Positions 31,106-32,551 of a DNA stretch of 64,000 nucleotides are shown piece after piece. The number at the start of each line of letters is the position of its first letter. Position 1 is the first letter of the stretch. Origin of the DNA: an uncultured Trueperaceae bacterium (lineage in GTDB: Bacteria; Deinococcota; Deinococci; Deinococcales; Trueperaceae); assembly GCA_963799485.1 (NCBI GenBank), contig CAWCXJ010000007.1, forward strand, positions 288,001 to 352,000. Reading direction: 5' to 3'. A program made the position numbers and the translations under genes. The notes beneath the pieces were generated by a model, which was not told where the DNA came from, did not search any database, and saw only the letters and a program-made list of their open reading frames with translations.

Positions 31106-31219
31106 TACGAAACGCGCGCGTGGACGGGTTGGTACCGGCACATCACGCTTTCGCTCCCAGCCCACGCTTTCCTGGCTGCGCTACGCGCCCAAGCACTAAA
31201 AAAGCAACTGTGTCATTTG

Positions 31220-32164
31220 TCAAGTAGCAGCTGGACGCCAGGAGCTTCCGGAGCGGATCATCGCGTTCAAGATACATAGGAGCTTTCTGGCACAGGCAAC
31301 CAACGCTACCTTTTTGGGCTTGCCCTTGAGCAGCAAGCGCTCATAGAGTGGGCGGATCAGGGGGTTGTAACGTGAGGCCGACAGCGCTGCCAGGTAAAGG
31401 GCGGTGCGCACGTCACGCCGACCGCCCCACACACTCCTTCGGCCCCGCCAGAGACCGCTATCGCGATTCAAAGGTGCGACGCCCACCAACGCAGCGATCT
31501 GCTTTCTCGTGAGGCTACCCAGTTCCGGCAAGTTCGCCAGCAACACCAGGGATACCTGCGGACCCACGCCTGGCACGCTCTGCAGTAAATGGTCACGTGC
31601 CTTGGTCGAGGGATCAGCCTTGACAGCTTCAAGCAACGCCTCGTCCAGGTGCTGGCGACGCTTTTCCAGGAACTTCAGGTGCTCATCAATATCGGCTTTC
31701 ACACTGTCGTCGTTGCAGGCGTGTAGGCGGTTGCGCTCGGCGGTTATCATCTGCACCAGCTGACTACGCCGCGTCACCAGGGCGTCCAAGGCACGTGTGG
31801 CGCTATCAGGCAACTTACGTAAAGCAGGTGCGACTTTGATTGCAAACTCAGCGAGTACCACAGCATCGATCCGGTCGGTTTTCGCCAGCTTGCCCAGGGC
31901 CCGAGCAAAATCACGCACCTGTCTTGGGTTGACCACCACCACAGGTAGCGCTGCCTCAACCAGGGCGATGACCAAGGGCTGCTCCAAACCGCCGGTGGCC
32001 TCAAGAACGATGCGGCTCGGCTGTAGATGCCTCAGCAGCTTGACCAACTCGCCGATACCGTCTGGCGTGTTGGCGTGTGAAAGGCGTTCACCGCTTGGTA
32101 TGATCGCGATATCGAGACGGTACTTGGCGACGTCTACGCCAGCCACCAACACTTCGTTAAGCAT
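31220..32164 (-). CDS. IS110 DEDD recombinase/transposase (314 aa)
   Basis: GVDVAK, VLEATG, KTDRIDA (DEDD), SVPGVG, RDSG catalytic-Ser motif, [17 protein letters not shown]. Confidence 0.96.
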
Positions 32165-32184
32165 GTCACCTCCGTGAGACGCTC

Positions 32185-32323
32185 CAGCGTAGCCCAACCT
32201 TGCAGATGCGAGCTTATTGCTCGGGTAACTGTTCGGGCTTAGGCTGAAGACAACAGCACGACGAGACTAGCTTTTTTACGGTCTTTAGAACCTAAGGGGC
32301 GACGCTCTGCCGTGCCGTGTCCC
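32185..32323 (-). ncRNA. Predicted IS110 bridge RNA (target-binding and donor-binding loops)
   Basis: Two stem/internal-loop modules whose loop segments match the flanking target and the element's own donor junction; ends approximate. Confidence 0.85.
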
Positions 32324-32551
32324 ATCCTCAACATACAAGGGGCTACCCCTGAACTCATCAGCTTGAGTATTCAAGAAGTTCGCCGCCTACTCGCTCGGCT
32401 TATCTGGCACCACTCCCTTGATCCACCCCGAGTCCTTGTCTGGTCTTGCCGGCGTCGGCGTCGTCAAGCCAGAGCTAAAGCCGCTCACTTCAAACGAAGA
32501 GGGTACTATCTGCGGCTGTAGTAAAAAACTTGTAACACCGGAAAGACGAAG

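Follow-up and report, generated by a model that had tools for sequence, protein, structure and literature searches.

The window analysed here, a stretch of 64,000 nucleotides from contig CAWCXJ010000007.1 of an uncultured Trueperaceae bacterium, carries at positions 31203-32339 (minus strand) an IS110-group element of 1137 bp with CT at each end (core CT included). This element is very likely an autonomous IS110-group insertion sequence that works like IS621, encoding a recombinase together with a bridge RNA whose target-binding and donor-binding loops can be read in its long left end. Judged from its sequence, it is a genuine and probably recently active bridge-RNA element. It is a further example of the already known IS110-group bridge-RNA system, in a family of which large-scale catalogues exist, and leaves the knowledge of IS110 elements unchanged.

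A first-pass annotation had described an intact IS110 element with readable RNA guides at this place, and every string and coordinate it gave is present on the minus strand as it said. At the left junction, GTAGCCC (32346-32340) is followed by CT (32339-32338) and TGTATGTT (32337-32330), and at the right junction ACAGTTG (31211-31205) is followed by CT (31204-31203) and TTTTTAG (31202-31196). CTT is common to both junctions because the right donor and the right target each begin with T. The element holds one long open reading frame (ORF). Its left end, between core and ATG, measures 175 nt, and its right end, counted past the stop codon and including the core, 17 nt; a reading of both ends showed no terminal inverted repeats. 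The CT core bounds all four copies found in the genome, and the flanks have no further sequence in common that might be a target duplication. The element and its junctions comprise the following features:

31203-32339, minus strand: whole IS110-group element; four copies are 100% identical over positions 1-1137 and their flanks differ
31220-32164, minus strand: recombinase ORF, 314 aa, encoding a DEDD RuvC-like domain and a Tnp domain that holds the catalytic serine; TGA stop at 31222-31220 (Pfam, NCBIfam and IS621 match)
32169-32173, minus strand: GGAGG ribosome-binding site, 4 nt upstream of the ATG at 32164-32162 (read from the sequence)
32338-32339, minus strand: left copy of the CT core (sequence, four copies)
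31203-31204, minus strand: right copy of the CT core (sequence, four copies)
32333-32337, minus strand: right donor TGTAT, the first bases of the left end; CT-TGTAT is kept in most homologous elements
31205-31211, minus strand: left donor ACAGTTG, the last bases of the right end; ACAGTTG-CT recurs with 0-2 mismatches in homologous elements
32340-32346, minus strand: left target GTAGCCC of this copy, in the 3' half of an AGGGG-TAG-CCCCT hairpin (32350-32338)
31197-31202, minus strand: right target TTTTTA of this copy

The recombinase matches the Pfam families PF01548 (DEDD_Tnp_IS110; 4.4e-26) and PF02371 (Transposase_20; 7.2e-18), and scores 223.8 bits against the NCBIfam model NF033542, 'IS110 family RNA-guided transposase', for which the cut-off is 140. 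Residues 3-307 align with the IS621 transposase (structure 8wt6; E 2.6e-41) and residues 4-307 with the ISCro4 transposase (PDB 9t56; E 1.4e-40). Within the former alignment, D11, E55, D97, D100 and S236, the serine of an RDSG motif, fall on the catalytic residues D11, E60, D102, D105 and S241 of IS621, where the serine stands in YESG; the catalytic roles of the IS621 residues are described in PMC11208158. The family models, the nearly full-length homology to IS621 and the identical, CT-bounded copies thus bear out the description of an intact element with complete DEDD residues and RDSG serine. Its length had also been called compact, which does not hold: 314 aa is not unusual, and the IS621 chain in the structure has 328 residues.

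Relatives were collected by a scan of species-representative genomes, in which 531 were confirmed. The best 79 loci were used, with proteins 51-60% identical, from hosts that include Dehalococcoidia, Nitrospira, Gemmatimonadales, Methylomirabilota and Deinococcus pimensis, among others. Recognisable ends of the form CT-TGTAT../..ACAGTTG-CT (0-2 mismatches) were present in 61 loci and the window, and the boundaries of relatives were confirmed independently by copies within one genome. The loci set aside were 14 without TGTAT in place, L028 (no right end), L049 (inconsistent ends) and others with less than 12 nt of flank. Locus L101, in a genome flagged as unpublished (G057), contributed nothing to the results. 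The structural alignment (A2) consists of 27 elements and the window; the first anchor pattern had kept 27 of 62 and was too strict. As the choice of A2 leaned on right-guide matches, the guide tests were redone with all 62 added and the columns kept. L036 and L042, whose first loop was unalignable, were dropped, leaving 60 elements with 48 distinct guide sets.

The left end shows the two-loop layout that had been proposed by eye. In each module, the guide segments lie in the single-stranded parts that separate the outer helix from the inner one. In the 5' to 3' order of the RNA, its parts are:

32304-32317, minus strand: outer helix of the target-binding loop, 5' strand, with a bulged A at 32308 (helix 1: compensatory changes in 9 of 12 pairs, 95.8% of cells paired)
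32295-32303, minus strand: left target guide GTCGCCCCT, in the sense of left target and core; 8/9 match to GTAGCCC-CT
32280-32292, minus strand: inner hairpin of the target-binding loop, GGTTCTAAAGACC (GGTT/GACC; helix 2: 98.2% of cells paired)
32271-32278, minus strand: right target guide TAAAAAAG, complement of CT plus TTTTTA; 8/8 here and at copy L004, U:G at the last position at L001 and L003
32269-32270, minus strand: target-loop handshake guide CT, whose C can pair with donor G7; C stands opposite G7 in 49 of 53 elements
32254-32266, minus strand: outer helix of the target-binding loop, 3' strand (consensus structure)
32235-32239, minus strand: outer helix of the donor-binding loop, 5' strand AGCCC (helix 3: 97.3% of cells paired)
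32224-32232, minus strand: left donor guide ACAGTTACC, 7/9 against ACAGTTG-CT, with mismatches at position 7 and at the last core position
32209-32223, minus strand: inner hairpin of the donor-binding loop, CGAGC-AATAA-GCTCG (helix 4: at columns 111/127, 5 of 28 sequences have A-U in place of G-C)
32199-32207, minus strand: right donor guide AT-CT-GCAAG, nine bases that pair discontiguously with CTTGTAT, with one G:T (read from sequence and alignment)
32197-32198, minus strand: donor-loop handshake guide GT, whose G is able to pair with C7 of the target; of 53 elements, 48 have a Watson-Crick and 3 a wobble pair here
32191-32195, minus strand: outer helix of the donor-binding loop, 3' strand GGGCT (consensus structure)

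The stem strings of the target module, ACGGCACGGCAGAG (32318-32305) with CTCGTCGTGCTGT (32265-32253), have one bulged A (32308). Across the 28 homologous left ends, the four helices comprise 25 pairs, and 95.0% of their 697 cells pair, compared with 36-46% when the partners are slid by 1-3 columns. Compensatory changes occur in 13 of the 25 pairs (70 cells), and the observed covariation score was reached by none of 500 shuffles. Furthermore, the helices contain 50 G.U cells versus 7 A.C cells, which places the structured RNA on the strand of the recombinase. The covariation thus supports the consensus structure, and with it the two-module fold and the target-loop and donor-loop arrangement of IS621-type bridge RNAs that the first-pass annotation had recognised.

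The target guides match the insertion site of the window copy better than expected by chance. When the 175-nt left end was shuffled 100,000 times with dinucleotides preserved, 2117 shuffles contained a 9-mer no more than one mismatch away from the left target and core, 497 an exact 8-mer complement of the core and right target, and 2 both guides in the correct order and spacing. The segments proposed earlier, with 8/9 on the left and an exact 8/8 on the right, are therefore upheld at this copy; the left match becomes 9/10 over GTCGCCCCTT once T32294 is included. Among the 48 distinct guide sets, the six non-core positions of the right guide match their own right flank at a mean of 4.69/6 and the flanks of others at 1.60. 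The seven positions of the left guide, taken at the best of adjacent registers, match their own target at a mean of 4.75/7 and the targets of others at 3.44. In both tests the observed mean was reached in none of 10,000 permutations. Among 49 distinct pairs, 29 have an exact 7-mer right guide and 12 one with a single mismatch. This fixed-column test replaced a free-position guide scan that was weak, the own target being better than all others in only 9 of 53 elements.

Four copies of the element, 100% identical over 1137 bp, lie in four different contexts in the source genome of the window (15 contigs, 3.66 Mb, GC 0.59), and a protein search found no further paralogues in it. Given in element orientation, their insertion sites are:

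L001: left flank gagcccc, core CT, right flank tttttgatag
L002 (the window copy): left flank gtagccc, core CT, right flank tttttagtgc
L003: left flank cgtcccc, core CT, right flank tttttggtaa
L004: left flank ttgaccc, core CT, right flank tttttatgcg

All four sites share CCC-CT-TTTTT(A/G). That other copies might sit at unrelated sites had been named beforehand as grounds for giving up the guide assignment; the three others are also found at this motif. A fifth copy is truncated to 29 nt of the left end, after GGGGTGACCC-CT. Each of the four right flanks pairs with the right target guide UAAAAAAG, two of them through a U:G at the last position. Over the seven left-target bases, the left target guide GUCGCCC matches 6, 4, 3 and 4 positions, the best being the window copy. 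Beyond CCC it fits the window copy only; at the other three it matches the three core-proximal positions and the core. The claim that the guides match real sites therefore stands in full for the right guide, while the left guide matches only in part at three of the four. Unoccupied CCCCTTTTTT[AG] sites number only 6 in the genome, versus 656 CTTTTTT[AG] sites. Because the target motif is this rare, the CCC to the left of the core, which the left guide alone could read, is part of the specificity.

Several side observations touch these copies. The truncated copy corresponds to L006 1501-1529 (G000:C12:16652-16680), where the 29 nt of left end follow the hairpin GGGGTGACCCC. A lone left-end fragment, 75% identical to that of the window, lies at L005 1501-1656 (minus strand; G000:C6:714982-715137). 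It carries the right guide TAAAAAAG as in the window, differs in the left-guide region (GAAGACCCCA), follows GAGACCC-CT and stands without a recombinase gene between ORFs resembling other transposases; it appears to be the relic of a second, related element. In the rock-metagenome contigs of run X5, a variant of the element is 95-99% alike over window positions 31199-32342; with a depth below 6 and a single contig per change, it is a tentative lead. It differs inside the guides (plus strand 32275, 32293 and 32295), and its flanks show a GGGGGC-TTCG-GCCCCC hairpin followed by CT-TTTTA. Run X2 has loose ends at window positions 31197-31199. One is the flank of L004; the second flank is absent from this genome, would give a right target of TTTTGG and could represent an extra site in a related strain.

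The donor guides were also found in place. The segment first proposed for the left donor, ACAGTTAC, lies at 32232-32225, and the TGCAAG segment of the right donor guide at 32204-32199; the right guide pairs with one G:T, as had been claimed, and the left guide departs from the donor at position 7, where it has A and the donor G. A discontiguous right donor guide is described for IS621 in PMC11208160, and the handshake rule and positions of IS621 in PMC11208158. In the donor-loop handshake, an A goes with a target T (Fisher p = 0.0016). Across the family, the donor guide mirrors variants of the left donor at 9 positions in 8 elements (L009, L012, L019, L048, L066, L073, which does so twice, L074 and L083) and differs from the left donor in the window (position 7), L011 and L070.

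A side observation concerns the core itself. Two copies of an element from Dehalococcoidia, L009 and L010, have the right junction ..GACGGTTG-CT, and at the left junction L009 has CT and L010 has AT (about 1309-1312); the left guide of this element ends in AT. L010 may be a natural example of a junction with a core base that departs from CT.

Several findings weigh against the reading of the element as a working IS621-like system. The single-sequence fold of the left end gives both modules, at a minimum free energy (MFE) of -58.6 kcal/mol (z = -1.04 versus shuffles). As this is not significantly below the shuffles, relatives were collected, the support for the structure is that of covariation, and energy was not used as evidence. 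The register of the left guide is ambiguous by one base, given CTT at both junctions and core-binding bases in three adjacent registers across the family. Three of the four distal left-target positions match at the window copy, versus 1, 0 and 1 of 4 elsewhere, and the left guide as read does not by itself explain the choice of sites. Judged by the match to the left guide, two of the six unoccupied sites, GCCGCCC-CT-TTTTTG and GTCGCCCC-CT-TTTTTA, surpass three of the four occupied sites. A search by way of the right flank in 40 relatives found no empty site; the flank itself is a repeat. Finally, the left donor guide A against the donor G at position 7 amounts to an A.C mismatch beside the core, otherwise found only in L056. 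Because the distal left-target positions match at one copy only, the natural specificity looks like a seed of 11-12 nt, not 16 nt, as far as these sites indicate.

These points lead to the alternative that survives best, which we hold to be possible, if on the unlikely side. It accepts a bridge-RNA element and proposes that sites are chosen mostly by way of a short seed, CCC-CT-TTTTTR, and of a DNA hairpin upstream of the core, with a minor contribution from the full 9-nt left guide; the 'sequence-structure dual-match' of ISPpu10 would be a parallel. In its favour, three of the four copies match the left guide only at CCC and CT. At most sites, occupied or unoccupied, the C-run is the 3' half of a hairpin and is followed by the T-run. 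More specifically, the 3' half of a hairpin carries the C-run at three of the four full copies and at the truncated fifth, while the C-run of L001 pairs with a downstream G-run. C-run hairpins are also present in the X5 variant and at G023, the closest relative, and 32350-32338 in the window was flagged as terminator-like by a scan. In addition, the ISPpu10 preprint reports a target stem-loop as an extra determinant. Against it, the left guide co-varies with the left target across the family, unoccupied sites have hairpins that are equal or stronger (-18 and -20 kcal/mol), and five sites cannot separate a role of hairpins from the circumstance that a C-run followed by a T-run is usually a terminator. 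The natural target is a C-run followed by a T-run, and in this genome such a sequence mostly forms the 3' shoulder of hairpin-plus-T-tract, terminator-like sites.

The same sites would fit a 'terminator-homing' bridge system, in which the target loop is tuned to the boundary between the C-rich stem and the T-tract of terminators through a seed of 11-12 nt, perhaps aided by the hairpin. We regard this as a doubtful proposal. As the guides fix the orientation, it would make insertions co-directional with the upstream transcription unit and part the hairpin from its T-tract. If it were true, read-through from host genes could supply bridge RNA and recombinase from an integrated copy; for genomic IS621 loci, PMC13626964 describes only weak bridge-RNA expression.

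It is improbable that the element is intact and no longer mobile, with copies that are old or were spread by means other than its own recombinase. The position-7 mismatch beside the core in the donor loop could disable it, the two well-matched sites are unoccupied, and the searches gave neither an empty site nor a circle joint: contigs of four sequencing runs aligned to the element showed no joints, and such contigs say nothing on circles or excision. These points are countered by the four copies themselves, which are identical throughout, lie in unrelated flanks and are each bounded exactly by CT. All of them carry the one donor guide and thus spread with it, so that the A at position 7 did not prevent spread; L056, from an unrelated host, has this A too. 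Moreover, the element was not found in the 5 genomes of the same genus that were searched, which points to recent arrival and spread.

A last alternative, that the matches between loops and flanks arose by chance in a left end conserved for protein binding or translation control, could appeal to the unexceptional fold energy and the weak free-position scan, and is refuted as far as the sequence data reach by the compensatory helix changes, the fixed-column covariation of guides and flanks under permutation, the 9 donor-guide changes that mirror the donor, and the rarity of both guides together in shuffles, which makes it highly improbable.

The IS621-like reading is further consistent with a candidate promoter that would arise when the two ends of the element are joined:

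31218-31223, minus strand: TTGACA, -35 hexamer in the right end, overlapping the stop codon and 15 nt before the right-end terminus (spacing to TATGTT)
32330-32335, minus strand: TATGTT, -10 hexamer in the left end, starting 2 nt after the core; it would be active only when end joining supplies the -35 hexamer

Joined at one CT, the ends read TTGACA-17-TATGTT. Of 51 distinct elements, 35 have TTGACA or TTGACT at the -35 position, and TAT opens the second hexamer in every case. A promoter across joined ends is described in PMC11208160, and TTGACA-17-TATGTT may act as such a junction promoter.

By analogy, we infer the following cycle of circle formation, junction transcription, tetramer assembly and serine-mediated exchange. 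The element would be released as a circle, its right and left ends joined at one CT. The junction would create the promoter, from which transcription would begin some 7 nt beyond the -10 hexamer and shortly before the first helix, and the transcript would fold into the target-binding and donor-binding loops. A recombinase tetramer would assemble on the two loops, cut beside the CT core by means of Ser236 and exchange strands. The left guides, which have the sense of the top strand, would pair with the bottom strand and the right guides with the top strand, all four reading the core. The nucleotide 3' of each right guide (C in the target loop, G in the donor loop) would 'shake hands' with position 7 of the other DNA. 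The first-pass annotation had called the system probably functional, and programmable, and from its sequence we infer both.

Among known systems, the closest counterpart is IS621 of E. coli (Durrant et al. 2024, PMC11208160; Hiraizumi et al. 2024, PMC11208158; structure 8wt6). The two recombinases are homologous over their full length and have the five catalytic residues in common. Both elements have a CT core and carry in the long left end a bridge RNA in which a 9-nt left guide and a right guide occupy each of two internal loops; in both, the right donor guide is discontiguous, a handshake nucleotide follows each right guide on its 3' side, and a promoter motif spans the joined ends. They differ in that the right target guide has 8 nt here and 4 nt in IS621, that the target is a C-run and T-run at terminator-like hairpins here and a REP element in IS621, and that only the element described here has a donor guide mismatch at position 7 and distal left-target positions that are poorly matched at three of four copies. 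The 5' stem-loop of the IS621 RNA has no room here because the first helix starts about 20 nt into the left end. In IS621, the encoded target ATCGGGCCTAC and the natural site it prefers, ATCAGGCCTAC, are one base apart. ISCro4 (PDB 9t56) is the second homologue with a solved structure, the likeness being that of the sequence match alone.

The element and the 61-element subfamily agree in the donor ends ..ACAGTTG-CT / CT-TGTAT.., in the architecture of the RNA and in the promoter motif at the junction, while each member has its own target guides and most have about 25 nt more before the first helix. The closest relative, G023, from another genus of the same family, has a left end that is 75% identical. 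Its right guide GTAGTAAG and right flank TATTAA show two positions that changed together with the target, and one wobble pair, and it also sits at a C-run hairpin. Another 120 genomes of the family gave no more than weak or partial matches. A near-identity search of plasmids gave no match; the best plasmid-borne homologues are located on Deinococcus plasmids, at 54% identity. An exact 32-mer of the left end had no matches in metagenome contigs. A host within the Deinococcota, as first proposed, is consistent with these data and unproven: over 597 aa of RpoB, identity is 75% with Deinococcus pimensis and 56-60% with genomes of Nitrospira, Gemmatimonadales and Chloroflexota. Of little taxonomic value was the ORF at 29060-30121 (minus strand), whose product shows 50% identity with Deinococcus pimensis.

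Like the element described here, ISPpu10 of Pseudomonas putida (bioRxiv 10.64898/2026.03.19.712850) is an IS110 element with a GC-rich stem-loop 5' of the paired region in its targets; these are identical copies of one intergenic repeat, whereas the sites here share 11-12 nt. The IS1111 group and seekRNA elements have in common the recombinase family and the RNA-guide principle. They differ in having a long right end with the RNA and longer subterminal inverted repeats, in contrast to the long left end (175 nt) and short right end (17 nt) seen here. The long left and short right end with the RNA in the left is the mark of the IS110 group (PMC11208160), and the element shows all the defining features of IS110-group bridge-RNA elements that its sequence could reveal. 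An assignment to the IS1111 group, which is marked by the RNA in a long right end and by 7-17 bp subterminal repeats, was rejected, the right end being 17 nt and no repeats being seen on reading. Bridge RNAs were predicted in 85.7% of the IS110-group elements in ISfinder (PMC11208160).

A search of Rfam 15 matched no bridge-RNA family. As a side result, the family RF02234, the Xanthomonadaceae small RNA sX15, matches over its full length (1-159) below its gathering score of 55, on the strand opposite the recombinase: the window at 32173-32331 (plus strand) with 26.4 bits, and L035 1316-1462, L012 1337-1483 and L073 1334-1492 with 39.6-43.4 bits. According to PMC3300014, sX15 and asX7 form a plasmid-borne pair, complementary to each other, that has 10 homologues in Stenotrophomonas maltophilia. 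It is possible that the sX15/asX7 locus represents an IS110 left end and that the Rfam model was made for the strand opposite the bridge RNA.

The value of the element lies in its being a well-delimited natural bridge system for which coordinates can be given for donor, target, four guides, two handshake positions and the candidate junction promoter. The subfamily to which it belongs is widespread, with constant donor ends ACAGTTG-CT-TGTAT and freely varying target guides. The element is a ready candidate for a plasmid recombination assay, and lends itself to the questions of what share of the left guide is required in vivo and of whether a target hairpin contributes.

Two observations concern the immediate surroundings of the element in the window. 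Upstream of the insertion, by about 250 nt and on the strand of the element, lies a tRNA-Leu(CAG) gene (32591-32677, minus strand) that has a hairpin and T-run of its own; no feature was identified in the sequence that separates it from the element. On the other side, the right flank at 30899-31175 contains an 86-aa ORF (30905-31165, minus strand) with no Pfam or NCBIfam match. This flank recurs at 72-79% identity at three other places in the genome and in three genomes of the same genus, and the element may thus adjoin another repeat.

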